DNA of 9,406 nucleotides. It comes from a virus. Lineage: Duplodnaviria > Heunggongvirae > Uroviricota > Caudoviricetes. The stretch lies in IMG/VR virus record IMGVR_UViG_2648501787_000010; one strand, 5' to 3'. This document shows, in pieces, positions 356-6,143 of this stretch (position 1 is its first letter; each line of letters starts with the position of its first letter). A model generated the notes under the pieces. That model worked only from the letters and a program-made list of their open reading frames with translations. It was not told where the DNA came from and did no database searches. The translations under genes and the position numbers were made by a program.

Positions 356-898
356 TTACTCGCCTTTGTTCTGTAGCAACTTCTCAGGCGCGTTTCCGGT
401 AGTTTCCATCAGGTAATCAGCCAGTATCTGTGGCAGGTTTTCGTCAAGTCTTGCACATGCGTTACATGCTTTGGCTATTTCCCTTTTTAGTTCATCCAGC
501 ATATACGGCCTTATATCGGGAAAGCGCCTTTGCATTGTGAGCGGGAGGCTGTCCATGATTGATGAAATCTGACTCGCTAGTTTTGAAATCGCGTAGATGC
601 AAAACTTTGTATCAATCACCTCGCCGCGTTCGCGCTCGTTTTTAAGTTCCTGCGCTTCCGCCTGGGCCGTCATTAATCTGATTCTTACGCGTAAAAGTTC
701 ATCATCATCAATCTCGCCTTTGTCGTTTGTAAGCTGGTTAATTGCATTGTTAACCCTATTGTCTATCACGCTAGCAACATCATAAAACGCCTCACGGCCT
801 TTACGCTCAACGGGAGTTACTCCCCACTTGTCGAACGCTGTCGCACTTACGCGGCAGCTTTGCGCCATAGTTTTTTTGTTCATCAGGTGCGATTTCAT
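356..898 (-). CDS. terminase small subunit, lambda gpNu1-like
   Basis: Translation aligns by eye along its length to lambda Nu1 as recalled from memory: N-terminal MNKK...KWGV..ERKGREAFYDVASVI versus lambda VNKK...NWQEQG..GGGKGNEVLYDSAAVI; central RLMTAQAEAQELKNERERGEVIDTKFCIYAISKLASQISSIMDSLPLTMQRRFP versus lambda RLTRAQADAQELKNARDSAEVVETAFCTFVLSRIAGEIASILDGLPLSVQRRFP. Lies directly downstream of a cos site, as in lambda. Start is ambiguous: in-frame ATGs at 898, 883 and 868 and a GTG at 910; 898 has a G-rich SD-like motif, while 883 gives the MNKK N-terminus that best matches lambda. Confidence 0.9.
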   Translation of the reverse strand: MKSHLMNKKTMAQSCRVSATAFDKWGVTPVERKGREAFYDVASVIDNRVNNAINQLTNDKGEIDDDELLRVRIRLMTAQAEAQELKNERERGEVIDTKFCIYAISKLASQISSIMDSLPLTMQRRFPDIRPYMLDELKREIAKACNACARLDENLPQILADYLMETTGNAPEKLLQNKGE

Positions 899-925
899 CA
901 ATATCCCCACTTAGTTAAGGTTTCA

Positions 926-1099: not shown

Positions 1100-1444
1100 T
1101 CAACCAATCAACTTATTGCGTCCTTTCAGGGCATTACGCCTGGCGCGTTCAATCTTGAGGCATAACGCCGCATCAGGTTTTTCGGGGGTGGGAACAAGGC
1201 AATAATTTGATGCGCGCGGAATGTTGTTAATCCACGCAACAACCTCGCTTAAATACCATGCCTTGCGCCCTTTCGTAACCTGTACGCGTTCGGGGAACTC
1301 TCCGCGAGCTTCAAGGTTTAGCAATGTGCGACGGCTAAGGGTTGTAAGCTCCACTACCTGATCCATATCAACAAGGCGCTCGCTTAAACTCATTTTGTCA
1401 TCGATATCTAATAGCTCTCGTAGCTGACTATCTCTTTCAATCAT
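1100..1444 (-). CDS. AlpA-family (MerR-like winged HTH) DNA-binding protein with C-terminal extension, 114 aa
   Basis: Core LVDMDQVVELTTLSRRTLLNLEARGEFPERVQVTKGRKAWYLSEVVAWI fits the AlpA/Xis-type pattern (HTH, then FP..V....GR.AW...EV.AWI). GAGGT SD about 6 nt upstream of the ATG at 1444, embedded in the 3' end of the gpD-like gene (9-bp gap), so it is co-transcribed with the capsid genes. Stop TGA at 1100-1102. Confidence 0.8.
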   Translation of the reverse strand: MIERDSQLRELLDIDDKMSLSERLVDMDQVVELTTLSRRTLLNLEARGEFPERVQVTKGRKAWYLSEVVAWINNIPRASNYCLVPTPEKPDAALCLKIERARRNALKGRNKLIG

Positions 1445-1453
1445 TCTCGTACC

Positions 1454-1795
1454 TCACACACGTGCCAGCGGCTGAACAGAAATACCTGAGCCAACAAACG
1501 CAGCAACTTTTGCTGATAGTTGTGTTACAGACTCAGGCCAGTTCAGAGCATCAACATTTAAGACGCCGGTTTTATAAACCTGAGCCTGCGTTTTTGTCGC
1601 TGTATCGATTTGTACAGCGGAAACATAAACAGCTTTGCCTGCGCTCGTTCCATCCCATACCACCAGTGCACCAGTTGCATCTTCTTGCATCAGTGGCGTA
1701 AATGCAGGAATTACCCCTTTATTAGCTGAAAATATCCCCAACGTAGTAACCAGTGCTTCAGTGCCAGCCATGAGTTCAGTGTAATGAGTAGCCAT
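1454..1795 (-). CDS. head decoration protein, lambda gpD-like (113 aa)
   Basis: TPLMQEDATGALVVWDGTSAGKAV...VYKTGVLNVDALNWPESV...AAFVGSGISV aligns to lambda gpD [24 protein letters not shown]...FYKSGTFRYEDVLWPEAA...TAFAGTAISIV (from memory). Size matches gpD. Starts 9 bp after the capsid gene stop, with a G-rich SD. Confidence 0.9.
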   Translation of the reverse strand: MATHYTELMAGTEALVTTLGIFSANKGVIPAFTPLMQEDATGALVVWDGTSAGKAVYVSAVQIDTATKTQAQVYKTGVLNVDALNWPESVTQLSAKVAAFVGSGISVQPLARV

Positions 1796-1804
1796 TGCTC
1801 CCCC

Positions 1805-2845
1805 TTAACCAATGCGAACGGTAACAAAACGATTGATGCGGGCCGGTATTGGTTGCGGTGCGCTGTGCGTCTGCACATATTCAATAGCCGGATCACCTGG
1901 TACGATGTAATTTTTCGGCGCAAGTTCGGCTTTAGTCAGCCCCATTCTGATTAACTCAGGATCCTGAATGCCACCGTAGGCAACGATGCCCTGTAATGAT
2001 GTGTTGCCAAGCACCATCAAATCAGGATCAAGGAAATATTTTTCTTTGCCGTCCTCGTCGGTATAACGTCCGCTATATACCACAATAGCAACATCGCCAA
2101 CGTAACCCTTGAAGCTTACAGAATCCCCAAGATTTTTCAGGGTCGTTTCAAGAACGGAATTAGATCCCCGTCGAGTATCAAGGCAATCTTTTACTGCTTT
2201 AAAGGCGCGGTATTTTTTCCATACGTTGCGGCCCATTACGATGATATTTGTAGTACCTTCGCTGATTTCTGCGTACTCTTCGATGTCATCGTTTGGATCA
2301 AATGTTGATAAATCTCTACCGCTCCACTCCGTGCCGCCGGACTGCGTGATAATATTTTGTGGTTTTATATTCCAGTCCAGTTCATAACGTTCAATTCCAT
2401 CGCCTTCAATGATATTTTTCCCCGTTGTAACCGCCTGAACAGCAAGCCACTCAATACGCGCACGAATTGCCTGCGCTTGTCTTACTAACGCTCGCTTTAT
2501 TTTGAAACTGCGTGATGAATATGCATTGAATTGTTCAGGTGATACGCCTGGTTGACGAACGGCTATTTTATTTGGGTCGATACTACTTTTTGGCTTCATA
2601 TAGCCAGGGCGAATTACTTTTGATTCGTAGCCTTCATCGCGTGAGACTTTACTACCAACCATAGGGGAACAAAATGCAGCCATCGGGATGTCTGGATCGT
2701 CAATAATATCAAGCGCAATATCCCGCGTCTCAAATGTAACGACTCGCTTAAAAAACAGGTTTATAAATAAAGAATTAATCTGCCATTGAATATCTTCGGC
2801 ATTAACAACCTGTATTAACATGGCTGGCGAATATAAATCACTCAT
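1805..2845 (-). CDS. major capsid protein, lambda gpE family (346 aa)
   Basis: Several long blocks match lambda gpE as recalled: NIITQSGGTEWSGRDLSTFDPNDDIEEYA versus NITQSGGTEWSKRDKSTYDPTDDIEAYA; FKAVKDCLDTRRGSNSVLETTLKNLG versus FKAVKEKLDTRRGSNSELETAVKDLG; VGDVAIVVYSGRY and MVLGNT are conserved. Length is close to gpE (341 aa). AGAGG SD 5 nt upstream of the ATG at 2843-2845. Confidence 0.95.
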   Translation of the reverse strand: MSDLYSPAMLIQVVNAEDIQWQINSLFINLFFKRVVTFETRDIALDIIDDPDIPMAAFCSPMVGSKVSRDEGYESKVIRPGYMKPKSSIDPNKIAVRQPGVSPEQFNAYSSRSFKIKRALVRQAQAIRARIEWLAVQAVTTGKNIIEGDGIERYELDWNIKPQNIITQSGGTEWSGRDLSTFDPNDDIEEYAEISEGTTNIIVMGRNVWKKYRAFKAVKDCLDTRRGSNSVLETTLKNLGDSVSFKGYVGDVAIVVYSGRYTDEDGKEKYFLDPDLMVLGNTSLQGIVAYGGIQDPELIRMGLTKAELAPKNYIVPGDPAIEYVQTHSAPQPIPARINRFVTVRIG

Positions 2846-3030
2846 ATAACCTCTTAATACTTAGTAAAAGTGTCGCGTTAATTTTATCATCTGCCTTGTT
2901 TGGCATCTTTATGCATTGCTATGCAATAGTGTGCAAAGTTTCAATCTTCGTTTATTTATCCGGCGTTACGTGTCATTCTGTACAGCGTTACAAGTTCAAA
3001 GACATAAATTATTCTCTTTGGTGATGAAAG

Positions 3031-3057
3031 GGTCGGAATATTCCGGCCTTTTTTTTT
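3031..3057 (+). terminator. rho-independent terminator on the plus strand (orphan: no plus-strand gene upstream)
   Basis: GGTCGGA-ATAT-TCCGGCC hairpin (7-bp stem with one G-U pair) followed by a run of 9 T at 3049-3057. Confidence 0.55.
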
Positions 3058-3079
3058 GCGTAGTGTGACGGACTCAACT

Positions 3080-3102
3080 GATAAAAGCCGGATTGCTCCG
3101 GC
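3080..3102 (-). terminator. rho-independent terminator for the ssb-containing transcript
   Basis: On the minus strand GCCGGA-GCAA-TCCGGC hairpin followed by TTTTAT, 17 bp downstream of the SSB stop codon (3119-3121). Confidence 0.5.
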
Positions 3103-3118
3103 CTCTGTTACTCGTTGC

Positions 3119-3541
3119 TTAAAACGGTATGTTATCCCCGTACGGATCATCATTTCCCGCCTGTTGTTTTGCCCTGTTCAGTGCGTCAGTAGCCTGCCCC
3201 TGTTGACCTTTTTTGCCGCCCGGTCGCGCCGTTCTGGCACTGATTACACTGTCTGCGATAACCTGCCAGCCCTGCCGCGTTTCGCCGTTCTGGCCTGTCC
3301 ACTGGCTCACCTGCATATTACCCGCCACGCTCAGGAGTTCGCCTTTGTGGTGTTTTGCCAGTGCGTCGGCCTGTCTGCCAAACGCCAGGACAGATAACCA
3401 CATCGTCGCCGTTCCGTCATCTGCCTGGCTGCACGGCAGGGGAACCGCCATACCCGCCATCGCCATTTGTGTCCCTTTGCTGGTGGTCTTTAACTGCGGG
3501 TCAGCCACCAGCCGACCGTAAGCTGCTATCTGTGCTGTCAT
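3119..3541 (-). CDS. ssb: single-stranded DNA-binding protein (SSB-like), 140 aa, with C-terminal ...GDNIPF tail
   Basis: OB-fold pattern parallels E. coli SSB (GRLVADPQLKTT...G..MAMAGMAV versus GNLGQDPEVRYM...G.AVANITLA; W..V.AFG..A...AK...KG versus [21 protein letters not shown]), followed by a Gly/Gln-rich linker and an acidic tip ending IPF, like the DDDIPF tail of bacterial SSB. Start ATG (3539-3541) overlaps the stop of the upstream ORF by 4 bp. Confidence 0.85.
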   Translation of the reverse strand: MTAQIAAYGRLVADPQLKTTSKGTQMAMAGMAVPLPCSQADDGTATMWLSVLAFGRQADALAKHHKGELLSVAGNMQVSQWTGQNGETRQGWQVIADSVISARTARPGGKKGQQGQATDALNRAKQQAGNDDPYGDNIPF

Positions 3542-3816
3542 GCAGTCTGCTCTCCGGTTTTAACGTTGATGGTTGTCACCTGTTCAGCTTCCGCAATCTC
3601 CCGCTCTGTCAGCGTGGCAAAATTTGCCGCCGTCGTGGTCATGAATGCGCTTATCAGTTCGGGATGTGCTTTCGCGTATCCTTCCCCCGCGTGGCGGTCT
3701 ATCGTTCTGATTGCCACCTTTAAAGCGTGCTCTGTCATGTCTAACGCGCGATATTTCGGTTCTGTTCTGTCTCTGCGTTTTTTGAGTGATTTATTAAATT
3801 TCCCTGAAGTGTGCAT
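3538..3816 (-). CDS. hypothetical protein (92 aa), translationally coupled to ssb
   Basis: ORF with GAGGGGG upstream of the ATG at 3814-3816 (spacing somewhat long); an alternative internal ATG at 3736-3738 lacks an SD. Stop overlaps the ssb start. No recognisable motif. Confidence 0.5.
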   Translation of the reverse strand: MHTSGKFNKSLKKRRDRTEPKYRALDMTEHALKVAIRTIDRHAGEGYAKAHPELISAFMTTTAANFATLTEREIAEAEQVTTINVKTGEQTA

Positions 3817-3864
3817 ATTTATTTTTACCCCCTCGTTTAAAAAGTTTTGAGTTGTGCCTCCCCT

Positions 3865-4090
3865 TGTCTACCTTATCTACCTTAGTGGCCCTCATGCCAG
3901 TAATGGCGCGGCTTTCAGCGGGGTAGAGTGCTTTTATCCACTATCTACCCCGTGTCTACCTCCCTGTCTGATTCAGGTAAAATCAGGTAGAGAGGGTAGA
4001 TAGTGGGTAGACAGTAAAAAAAGGCTATCTACCTAACTTAATGCACTGAATTAAATGTATTTTTCTTTACTCAGGTAGACAGGGTAGACA
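3865..4090. repeat. iteron cluster (octamer GGTAGAYA / TRTCTACC, about 11 copies in both orientations); putative origin of replication
   Basis: Copies read directly: TGTCTACC 3865-3872, TATCTACC 3874-3881, GGTAGAGT 3922-3929, TATCTACC 3942-3949, TGTCTACC 3953-3960, GGTAGAGA 3986-3993, GGTAGATA 3995-4002, GGTAGACA 4006-4013, TATCTACC 4026-4033, GGTAGACA 4074-4081 and 4083-4090. Interspersed A-runs and an AT-rich stretch (4040-4070). Lies immediately 3' of the primase-helicase gene. Confidence 0.75.
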
Positions 4091-4104
4091 GCAATTACAA
4101 AAAA

Positions 4105-5859
4105 TTATAAAAACGCGTCGCACTCGTCTGTTGTTATTGCGTTAGTCTGCGTTACTCCCTTAACTTTCCGCGTAATATATTCATGTCCGTAAACTTTCGC
4201 GGCTGGCTTCATAGCCTTGCCAAAGTCATTTACGTTTAGCGGTTTGCTCCTGCCTGCGTACGCCATAAACGCCAGATAGACGCGGTAAAGGCTGTTTCTG
4301 GTCGTGTACTTCACTGAATCGCCACCGCCGCCCATCATCAGGCCGCGTGCTTCCTCCAGAAAATTCAGGAACTGGCAAAACTCAATAACCGGATCCGTCT
4401 GTTGCTTTATTGCCAGTGCTTCATCACCGTCACGCTGTTCAATGAGTAAAGCCCGTGCCTTTTCAGGGTCGGCAAAGTTCGCCAGCAAGCGGCGGATAAT
4501 GACAGGGATTTCAGCCGCGATCTTTTCCGGTAGCTCCCTGTCTTTTTCTGCCTCGCTTACGATGTTATCGAACCGGAATATCACCCGACGACGTGCCACA
4601 CCTCCGGCCCGTTCGGTGAATATCATCGGATTGTTATTGGTTGCCAGCACCACCGCCCTGATTACCGCCGTAAAACGCTTTTCATATTTCGGGTTAATTT
4701 CCACGGGGTCGCCGCCCGTGATTTTCTTGATGCCCGTTCCTTCGCCTGTATATTTCGGCTGGTCTGCCAGGACGATAAGCCGACTCCCGACAACCTGCGC
4801 ACGCCCACCAGCATCATCAAGCGATGTCATCTCAGCGCTTACTGTGTTCTGTTTCCCTGCCAGAAGGCTGGCTATGTGCGTAAATGTACTCTTGCCGCTC
4901 CCGCCGTCTCCTGTGGCCTCAATAAACATCTGCCAGTCGTACCGGTTCGCCATAATCATGTATAGCGCGGCACATATGCGCATCATCTTGCCCGGGTCTT
5001 TTCCGGCTGCGTGATCAAGCCATTTATGAAAGTTTGGCGCGTTGTCGCGGATATTCTCCCCTGGTACTGGCGGCGTGTACTCAATGCCGTTGTGTGTGGT
5101 GATCCAGTTATCAGGCGAGTGCGGGGAAAATTCCCCTGTTTTCAGGTCAAGCACGCCATTAGCGAACGGCAGCAAATCACCGGACGGCTCGCCCATTGGT
5201 TCGGCAATAACTTTTAACGCTTCAATGGCGTTACTGATTACGCGCTTGCTGAAAGTGGCTTTATGTTCTGAATAAATCGCCACCATTTCGCGGCTCAGTT
5301 CCATTGTGCTGACCGGACACCATACCCCGCCGCGCCAGACGTGGATGATTTCACTTTCCGGATGCACACAAACGCTATCAAAGCGATCGACAAGCAGTTG
5401 CGCGCGCTCACTGTCCGCCATCTGCGAAAGCTGCATTTTTTGCTTTACCGGAAGCTCAATAACCAGCCCATCAGAAAGATTCTGGCGTTCACGGGCCAGA
5501 TATTCGCGCCAGTTCTCCACCTTCTTACCGTGCATTCCCTCAGGGTAAAAATTTGCATCCTGTACGCCTGCCGCAGCCAGATTCTGACCAATCGCCTTAA
5601 TCATTACAGGCGCAAGATGTCCGGCTCTGTAGATACGAGCGTATGTTCGGCCTTCCGGTACAATCTGTAGATTATCCAGTTCGGATAGCTGCTGCTCTCC
5701 AAGCCACACAGGAGGCTCATTATCTCCGGCTGTACGCGCGTCGTGTTCCTGCCACTGTTTCGCGTGTGACCAGGCATCACTACCCGCAAAAATGATCACT
5801 TCGGTTTGTTCGTGTTTTATTCCGCGAGGCTGTTTTTTTACGTTCGGTGCCAGTTTCAT
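4105..5859 (-). CDS. P4-family DNA primase/helicase (replication initiator), 584 aa
   Basis: Walker A box GDGGSGKST followed by a hydrophobic-acidic Walker B-like segment (RLIVLADQ), with a large N-terminal domain, consistent with the P4 alpha / D5-type primase-helicase architecture. Start ATG 5857-5859 overlaps the stop of the upstream ORF (ATGA) and is preceded by a GGGGG SD. Stop TAA at 4105-4107. Confidence 0.9.
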   Translation of the reverse strand: MKLAPNVKKQPRGIKHEQTEVIIFAGSDAWSHAKQWQEHDARTAGDNEPPVWLGEQQLSELDNLQIVPEGRTYARIYRAGHLAPVMIKAIGQNLAAAGVQDANFYPEGMHGKKVENWREYLARERQNLSDGLVIELPVKQKMQLSQMADSERAQLLVDRFDSVCVHPESEIIHVWRGGVWCPVSTMELSREMVAIYSEHKATFSKRVISNAIEALKVIAEPMGEPSGDLLPFANGVLDLKTGEFSPHSPDNWITTHNGIEYTPPVPGENIRDNAPNFHKWLDHAAGKDPGKMMRICAALYMIMANRYDWQMFIEATGDGGSGKSTFTHIASLLAGKQNTVSAEMTSLDDAGGRAQVVGSRLIVLADQPKYTGEGTGIKKITGGDPVEINPKYEKRFTAVIRAVVLATNNNPMIFTERAGGVARRRVIFRFDNIVSEAEKDRELPEKIAAEIPVIIRRLLANFADPEKARALLIEQRDGDEALAIKQQTDPVIEFCQFLNFLEEARGLMMGGGGDSVKYTTRNSLYRVYLAFMAYAGRSKPLNVNDFGKAMKPAAKVYGHEYITRKVKGVTQTNAITTDECDAFL

Positions 5860-6143
5860 TTCTTACCCCCTGCGACCAGCATTTCACGGATTTTGCGGAT
5901 ATGACTTGCTGCACGTTTCTGATTTACGGCTTTACGATGGCCCACCAGCGTGAAATCACGCCGGAATTGATAAACAGGCATCACGCAATCATATTCGTAA
6001 CCTTCACGGCGGTAGGTGATGCGCCGTTCTGCCACGCCTTTAATCGTTACCATGCCGCCATATTTATCGCGGTAAATATCGCCGTTCATAAATTCAGGAC
6101 GAGCGGGGCCGCTGGCAGTAACGCCAGAATTTTTATTTTTCAT
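5856..6143 (-). CDS. hypothetical basic protein (95 aa), translationally coupled to the primase
   Basis: ORF with GGAG upstream of the ATG at 6141-6143; stop overlaps the primase start codon. No recognisable motif. Confidence 0.55.
   Translation of the reverse strand: MKNKNSGVTASGPARPEFMNGDIYRDKYGGMVTIKGVAERRITYRREGYEYDCVMPVYQFRRDFTLVGHRKAVNQKRAASHIRKIREMLVAGGKK

Follow-up and report, generated by a model that had tools for sequence, protein, structure and literature searches.

A conserved outward terminator and a predicted short divergent transcription unit at the capsid-module boundary of an EcCICFT073-type phage-inducible chromosomal island

We analysed a 9,406-nucleotide stretch of DNA (the window; IMG/VR record IMGVR_UViG_2648501787_000010), with particular attention to the interval 2846-3118 between ssb and the capsid operon. 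The window is a phage-inducible chromosomal island (PICI) of about 10 kb and of the EcCICFT073 type, with its genes on the minus strand, an assignment based on Pfam matches, on the annotation and tRNA-Pro flank of Escherichia coli MEW, and on iterons at 3860-4095. It combines an integrase, AlpA, a primase/replication gene with an origin, and phage-like packaging genes, arranged in one direction over about 10 kb with site-specific insertion, as expected of a PICI. The genes referred to below are as follows.

8165-9406, minus strand: integrase (Pfam).
4105-5859, minus strand: primase, D5-type (Pfam).
3119-3541, minus strand: ssb, the final gene of the replication module in this lineage (Pfam SSB, E 9.4e-15, and annotation).
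2850-2855, minus strand: Shine-Dalgarno sequence AAGAGG of the capsid gene, read from the sequence, 5 nt before the ATG at 2845-2843.
1805-2845, minus strand: major capsid protein gene, lambda gpE-like, first in the capsid/packaging operon (Pfam Phage_cap_E, E 3.4e-41).
1454-1795, minus strand: decoration protein, gpD-like (Pfam).
1100-1444, minus strand: AlpA-like winged-helix protein of the capsid operon (Pfam Phage_AlpA; WP_000572593.1).
356-910, minus strand: Nu1-like small terminase/Rpp-like protein (Pfam).

Positions 2700-3250 are 100% identical to an island of about 10 kb in E. coli MEW (L001), located between yejO and tRNA-Pro/yejM, where the equivalent of 1805-2845 is annotated as the major capsid protein. 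Upward of about 5850, gene coordinates shift by 6-14 nt between the window and MEW; the primase has 584 aa in the window and 582 aa in MEW, and alpA lies at 7433-7639. Given this drift of gene coordinates, the window is a close relative of the MEW record and not that exact record. The island shares with EcCICFT073-type PICIs the common order of int, alpA, primase with downstream iterons, and ssb, and the capsid and decoration homologues of those islands are c1499 and c1500 (PMC6092414; PMC6739421). The gpE-like capsid, gpD-like decoration and Nu1/Rpp-like proteins, the size of about 10 kb and the tRNA insertion are likewise common to both. A blastn search of 2846-3118 against 50,697 phage records gave zero matches, which argues against a helper cos or other phage segment as the source of the interval.

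Several further features were observed in the island. Between the small ORF 3538-3816 and the primase gene, positions 3860-4095 hold dense direct and inverted copies of (C/T)(G/A)TCTACC, read as GGTAGA on the opposite strand. These repeats are very probably the replication origin of the island, which fits published PICIs, where ori lies just downstream of the primase gene; they also caused spurious microRNA-family Rfam matches at 3935-4018. A long imperfect palindrome at 920-1006, with arms at 921-933 and 993-1005 that are 92% complementary and spaced by 59 nt, lies within the small ORF 898-1107 between the AlpA-like and Nu1/Rpp-like genes. It had the top Rfam score on both strands, still below threshold, and is possibly a packaging-related site. 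Many island genes in the window and in four related loci (L002-L005) have an unusually G-rich Shine-Dalgarno sequence, such as AGGGGG or AAGGGGGAG; they include the decoration and AlpA-like genes, ORF 3538-3816, the type C capsid gene and a PerC-like gene.

The interval between ssb and the capsid gene, and its edges, contain the following features and predictions.

2889 to 2881, minus strand: candidate capsid-operon promoter with the extended -10 element TGATAAAAT, the top minus-strand score in the interval.
2911-2937, no strand assigned: three boxes, ATGCATT, ATGCAAT and GTGCAAA, in 10-bp phase and unique in the window.
2911-2939, plus strand: candidate divergent promoter, weak here, made up of ATGCAT (2911-2916), a 17-bp spacer and CAAAGT (2934-2939).
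2946-3057, plus strand: predicted untranslated transcript of about 110 nt, its 5' end uncertain by several nt.
3031-3057, plus strand: intrinsic terminator of the divergent unit, consisting of a stem, an ATAT loop and T9, with position and polarity kept in 11 sequence types.
3058-3082, no strand assigned: junction between the capsid module and the ssb-replication module, placed by a similarity boundary.
3080-3102, minus strand: intrinsic terminator of the ssb module, with stem GCCGGA/TCCGGC and tail UUUUAUC, which travels with ssb.

When the sequence was re-read, the coordinates that the original prediction had given for both hairpins and for a short palindrome were all accurate, and its description of a plus-strand terminator lacking an upstream plus-strand gene was borne out, none being annotated or plausible before the T9 terminator. 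The plus-strand stem pairs GGTCGGA (3031-3037) with TCCGGCC (3042-3048) around the 4-nt loop ATAT, with T9 at 3049-3057; five of its 7 bp are G-C pairs and one is G.U. It thus has the G+C-rich, short-loop stem and the immediate U-rich tract of a rho-independent terminator on the plus strand, and in a consensus scan it was among the three longest terminator-like sites of the window (12 pairs including an A/T extension). RNA of 3020-3062 from the plus strand folds at -18.2 kcal/mol (z -4.35), which 0 of 200 shuffles equalled. The minus-strand RNA reaches only -8.1 kcal/mol (z -1.98), because the G.U pair turns into a C.A mismatch, and its tail is just CUUUCAUC. The ssb terminator has its stem at 3087-3092 and 3097-3102, its loop at 3093-3096 and its tail running from 3086 to 3080, with a folding energy of -15.3 kcal/mol (z -4.12); it was absent from the scan list because its tail holds only five U in a broken run. 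Among otherwise near-identical relatives (L011-L015), the T run of the outward terminator (3049-3057 in the window) varies from T7 to T10, which could reflect homopolymer slippage or sequencing error.

The two terminators had been described as facing each other; judged by their distribution, they are not a functional pair. A megablast search with 2700-3250 matched 923 E. coli genomes, 893 of which match only from about 3083 on, through the minus-strand hairpin into ssb. Positions 2846-3082 are present in only 30 genomes, every time beside this capsid gene. Because the similarity boundaries differ in this way (923 versus 30 genomes), we assign the two terminators to different modules joined at about 3058-3082. 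In the commonest relatives, types A and B described below, the minus-strand terminator after ssb is wholly absent. The facing arrangement is best read, from this pattern of matches, as a recombination junction and not as a designed pair.

The ssb terminator resembles other hairpins of these islands. The same GCCGGATTGCTCCGGC hairpin is also seen behind ssb and behind cargo genes of L004 and L005. More generally, a hairpin GCCGGATT(G/T)CTCCGGC with an A-rich 5' flank follows ssb, a PerC-family gene and other cargo genes (L005 4468-4490 and 4829-4850; L004 4640-4665; window 3083-3102), and looks like a portable terminator marking the ends of gene cassettes in these islands.

We compared the interval with relatives from E. 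coli genomes (L002-L006), IMG/VR (L011-L090 and L132-L211), species-representative genomes of Kluyvera, Superficieibacter, Cedecea and Kosakonia (L007-L010), and metagenomes found through a box-pattern search (L091-L131). These gave 11 sequence types (W, A, B, C, L007, L110, L123, L115, L010, L008 and L009) drawn from Escherichia, Kluyvera, Superficieibacter, Cedecea, Kosakonia and metagenomes. Without exception (11 of 11), the capsid promoter region ends in an intrinsic terminator directed away from the capsid gene. The common layout runs from the first gene of the operon through an extended -10 element on the capsid strand and three or four rTGCAAy boxes to 80-125 nt of lineage-specific sequence, and then to a hairpin and T run pointing outward. 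The first operon gene is the capsid gene, except in type C, where a 68-aa gene precedes it. In every type, T residues in the 8 nt after the stem (5-8) outnumber A residues in the 8 nt before it (2-5). Measured from the conserved -10-like element, the last T lies 83-127 nt away in 16 representatives and 118 nt away in the window. The stems comprise at least five distinct sequences (GGTCGGA..., GCCGGAAAA..., GCCCGATAAG..., GCGGG/GGCGGG... and CAGCTCGC...).

This outward unit stays with the capsid gene whichever neighbour lies beyond it, be it ssb, other ORFs, or a primase gene with iterons. In L007-L010, the far-side gene is not ssb, its place being taken by a 107-aa, 372-aa or 290-aa ORF, or by a primase gene with iterons. 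In types A and B, the outward hairpin is the sole terminator-like site between ssb and the capsid gene, and it lies on the outward strand. Among 5426 complete E. coli genomes, type W occurs in 30, types A/B in 366 and type C in 528, as counted in three separate queries whose sets may overlap; the sequence type of the window is thus rarer than type C or A/B within the EcCICFT073-type PICIs, and the unit is present in roughly one sixth of the genomes (about 900 of 5426, with the same possible overlap). We take the phoQ-adjacent type C to be the type found in CFT073 and O157. The A/B and W regions are featureless in the annotation, and under the type C match RefSeq gives one hypothetical protein.

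This distribution suggests that the orphan terminator is under selection as a conserved component of the capsid module, where it most likely ends a short untranslated divergent transcript. The original prediction, that it implies either a short plus-strand RNA or insulation, is strengthened in part, since every related capsid module that we examined has an outward terminator at the equivalent place. Because the outward terminator recurs, plus-strand transcription from the promoter region would seem to be real enough for selection to act against run-on.

Candidate promoters on both strands were sought with a simple sigma-70 weight-matrix scan. That the interval includes the capsid-operon promoter, as had been proposed, agrees with the conserved extended -10 candidate TGnTAnnnT, which probably serves this purpose; its -35 region is poor (AAGATG, 2909-2904). 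The same element occurs on the capsid strand at a matching distance from the boxes in types W, A, L007, L009 and L010, with the variants TAGAAT, lacking TG, in type B and TATAAT in type C. Type C has a near-consensus capsid promoter, TTGCAC-16-TATAAT, the -35 of which is itself a box. In CFT073, c1498-c1501 go up together at 37 C as a separately regulated unit (PMC12890032). Judging from gene order next to phoQ, these appear to be the four genes of the type C operon, and their joint rise is consistent with an operon having its own promoter. The type C capsid promoter is directly followed by a hairpin, CTGGATG-N-CATCCAG plus AUGAUUUUUU, which the scan listed as terminator-like. This site was noted at 4296-4315 on the minus strand of L004; its sequence occurs also in L005 and L006 and is conserved across L132-L211. 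The arrangement suggests that type C is controlled by leader termination and antitermination, much as at lambda PR'-tR', and not by activation.

The outward promoter is also better seen by comparison. The pattern rTGCAA-17-yAAArT was found in six lineages, as rTGCAA-17-TAAAGT/TAAAAT in L003, L007, L008 and L010 and as ATGCAA-17-CAAAAT in L009, and the ATGCAT-17-CAAAGT of the window is in register with the others, all types keeping A at -11 and T at -7. In the weight-matrix scan, ATGCAT-17-CAAAGT fell outside the top five plus-strand scores of the window. The GTATAAAGT element could instead be a fourth operator box and not a -10. Another weak plus-strand candidate, GTTACA-17-TATTCT, would yield an RNA of only about 35 nt. 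The outward equivalent in type C is TTGAGT-17-TG-AATGAT, and among 45 unique type C sequences the TTGAGT, TG and AAT..T positions are invariant or nearly so, with polymorphism of the -10 confined to -9/-8. The first 30 nt or so of the predicted type C transcript exist in four unrelated versions. In type C, the predicted plus-orientation (anti-c1498) transcript of about 78 nt would run from some 7 nt past TGAAATGAT to the U run after CTTATCGGGC. This conservation suggests that the candidate divergent promoter at 2911-2939 may be active.

The boxes form the pattern TGCAT-N5-TGCAA-N5-TGCAA at 2912-2936, which is unique in the window, with 0.11 matches expected even when two mismatches are allowed. 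Every lineage has three or four rTGCAAy boxes in the equivalent place, and their conservation makes it probable that the boxes at 2911-2937 are an operator for a DNA-binding regulator. The palindrome ATTGC-TAT-GCAAT noted earlier is present at 2915-2927; its standing as a separate dyad is lost, as it consists of two of the three direct-repeat boxes. All lineages with direct-repeat boxes encode the AlpA-like protein in the capsid operon, with 68-78% identity and a near-identical helix-turn-helix region. In type C, the box layout is partly inverted, an unrelated 137-aa protein replaces the AlpA-like protein, and the extra 68-aa gene stands before the capsid gene. As it co-occurs with the direct-repeat boxes, the AlpA-like protein (1100-1444) is the obvious candidate for binding the TGCAA boxes, a circumstantial link drawn from gene content.

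Taken together, these features suggest that the capsid/packaging module is controlled from 2846-3118, a stretch that abuts the end of the replication module. The three TGCAA boxes would lie between two back-to-back promoters. The leftward capsid promoter, with an extended -10 and no usable -35, would for that reason probably depend on an activator. The rightward promoter, predicted to be weaker and to use a box as its -35, would produce the untranslated transcript of about 110 nt that halts at the T9 terminator. We propose, with evenly balanced confidence, that this short divergent untranslated transcription unit serves as a module boundary. As chiefly a boundary element, it would use the terminator to block transcription from the operator region from going antisense into ssb and the primase gene, and the transcript, or the act of transcribing it, would be antisense and head-on to ssb read-through heading for the capsid genes. 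The hairpin at 3083-3102 is a plain ssb-module terminator. Among comparisons of transcript bodies between lineages, only A versus B gave significant homology. Given these non-homologous bodies and the lack of a consistent trans target, a cis role that does not depend on the sequence of the RNA is favoured. Three observations hint at something beyond a passive spacer: the narrow length range, a hairpin of the non-E. coli clade that covaries around its CCUCC loop, and the conservation of the 3' part among type C sequences.

The outward terminator invites other readings. It might be a pure insulator of the replication module that, with no local promoter, stops plus-strand transcription from further left, whether from antisense transcripts within the capsid/packaging operon or from read-in out of flanking host genes. 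The weakness of the predicted local promoter in the window is in keeping with this, as are the host genes aimed at the left end of the island (yejO in L001, phoQ in L004 and L005) and the non-homologous spacers, which are what a mere spacer would be expected to show. However, the terminator stands about 3 kb into the island, a position too far in to shield the capsid operon from read-in, and the scan gave no consensus plus-strand promoter in the capsid operon, its plus-strand sites lying only at 4076-5995. The spacing of 83-127 nt and the conservation of the -35, TG and -10 would also be left unexplained, and we consider this reading improbable. It is very unlikely that the hairpin at 3031-3048 serves the minus strand, either as a back-up terminator for ssb or with both hairpins forming a bidirectional terminator. 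The hairpin does lie downstream of ssb on that strand, types A/B have no other hairpin after ssb, and type C terminators, flanked by AAAA and T6-7, could act both ways; but the minus-strand RNA has the C.A mismatch and weak fold given above, all 11 types carry the U-rich tail on the outward strand, the unit is retained where the upstream neighbour is other than ssb, and the similarity boundary groups the hairpin with the capsid module and not with ssb. That the interval encodes a small plus-strand protein is scarcely credible. Mechanical ORFs can be drawn at 2896-3024 (42 aa) and 2916-3068 (50 aa), both with a TTG start, as can a 14-codon ATG ORF from 3025, but these begin inside operator boxes or cross the terminator, and none has a Shine-Dalgarno sequence. 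The type A ORF crosses the terminator, that of type B is only two codons long, and the ATG is missing from type C variants; no plus-strand ORF shared between lineages was found.

The main rival reading makes the plus-strand unit a trans-acting small RNA of the Hfq or anti-Shine-Dalgarno type, pairing with island, helper-phage or host mRNAs, with the terminator supplying both the RNA 3' end and an Hfq handle. It would suit the predicted length of 77-120 nt and the long U tails (6-9) that most lineages have. In Kluyvera, Kosakonia and Superficieibacter, a hairpin lies 41-43 nt from the predicted 5' end, and in this non-E. coli clade the hairpin keeps a CCUCC/CUCCU loop (P unpaired 0.65-1.0), with compensatory stem changes found by a direct stem search (TGTTATTT/AAATAACA, CTGTTAC/GTAACAG and TCTGTCGCT/GGCGACAGA). 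RNAalifold on the MAFFT alignment of this clade recovered the terminator alone, because MAFFT misregisters the internal hairpin. Type C combines a variable 5' domain with a conserved 3' part, CCUCAUAUGCAAAA plus the terminator, in a pattern that resembles the prophage anti-sRNAs AgvB and AsxR (PMC4104026), and its terminator loop of 10-12 nt always contains CCUC or CCUG. CCUC motifs are also kept immediately ahead of the type C terminator. Such C/U-rich motifs could pair with the G-rich Shine-Dalgarno sequences of many island genes. Against this, the transcript bodies are non-homologous between lineages, and the C/U-rich motif falls outside hairpin loops in W, A, B and L009, being mostly paired in W (P unpaired 0.31). 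Between A and B, the intergenic region is 78-90% conserved, less than the capsid gene at 95-100%.

The search for targets and for known RNA families bears on the same question. Duplexfold against the translation-initiation regions of the islands pointed to the start region of the AlpA-like gene; in type A, CUCCCUUUG pairs with UAAAGGGGG, and in type C CCCGAUAAG, which precedes the 137-aa gene, is complementary over 10 nt to the 3' arm of the terminator. As a target, this start region was set aside after cofold ranks proved inconsistent (3/15, 4/7, 2/8, 7/8 and 10/11), and no target ranked consistently once accessibility was included; in this search, some of the start coordinates beyond about 5850 were displaced by 14 nt, the window differing there from MEW. 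A k-mer search for complementarity over the window found seven 9-mers against 4 expected, and nothing of 10 nt or longer elsewhere in the window. Rfam covariance models, including C4/CI, Esr41, AgvB and AsxR, gave no match to the interval at E<=1 in the window and none at E<=0.5 in the homologous regions of eight related loci, and the unit was absent from the EHEC/EPEC sRNA catalogues checked. In O157 Sakai, the sRNAs reported from Hfq crosslinking include none from the island that corresponds to this one (Tree 2014, Table S2). Known E. coli mobile-element sRNAs were rejected: Esr41 is on SpLE1 and not at this locus, none of the EcOnc RNAs is assigned to Sp7 (EcOnc54 is in the Sp6 tail region; Tree 2014), and PasB is in prophage PP6, its probe sequence being missing from all 213 sequences compared. 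On balance, we regard a trans-acting RNA as unlikely. We think it improbable, too, that an unannotated sRNA gene divergent to the PICI capsid promoter is a real riboregulator forming a two-state switch with the AlpA-like protein and the TGCAA operator. Such a switch may alternate between a resting state, with the RNA on and the capsid operon off, and an induced state, and lineage-specific 5' domains or anti-Shine-Dalgarno loops may then act on island or helper-phage late mRNAs.

The proposed boundary unit has design analogues among phages and satellites. The OOP RNA of lambda is a 77-nt untranslated RNA that has a promoter and an intrinsic terminator to itself and works in cis, as an antisense transcribed head-on to the upstream operon. 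The unit predicted here would likewise be short, untranslated and head-on, with a promoter and terminator of its own, whereas OOP overlaps the 3' end of cII and the window unit is intergenic, shares the capsid promoter region and is unrelated in sequence. At lambda PRM/PR, divergent promoters surround repeated operators, and one bound protein activates one promoter and occludes the other; here, one arm would yield only an untranslated transcript of about 110 nt. AgvB, AsxR and convergent sRNA pairs are also short RNAs with intrinsic terminators at phage-module junctions (Tree 2014, PMC4104026), and AgvB and AsxR share with the type C versions a conserved 3' part and a variable 5' part. They differ in being 51-60 nt long, lying downstream of PR' in lambdoid prophages and having been shown to bind Hfq, and the elements to which the listed EcOnc RNAs are assigned include none that could be this island (Tree 2014). 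The P4 CI RNA (C4 family) and the PLE small RNA (bioRxiv 10.1101/2022.04.08.487710) provide precedents for satellite small RNAs that control genes of the satellite or its helper. In contrast to the present unit, the CI RNA is processed from a leader transcript, with its Rfam family unmatched here, and the PLE RNA comes from Vibrio. None of the closest design analogues, namely OOP, the convergent prophage sRNAs and back-to-back promoters, is related in sequence.

The timing of capsid and packaging genes in Gram-negative PICIs is little described. In two papers on EcCICFT073-type PICIs (PMC6092414; PMC6739421), the DNA ahead of the capsid genes is given no promoter, operator, terminator or RNA, and in the papers examined on this family AlpA acts at its own promoter, with no control region described before the capsid operon. 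The present comparison defines such a region, made up, as predicted here, of an extended -10 promoter that is conserved, an operator of TGCAA boxes, a candidate regulator and a short outward transcription unit. With transcription and binding deduced from sequence conservation, we infer a widespread but mechanistically ordinary element in which the terminator would have an insulating role. If the transcript exists, it would be either a simple case of mobile-element modules bringing along insulation of their own or a small RNA widespread among satellites.
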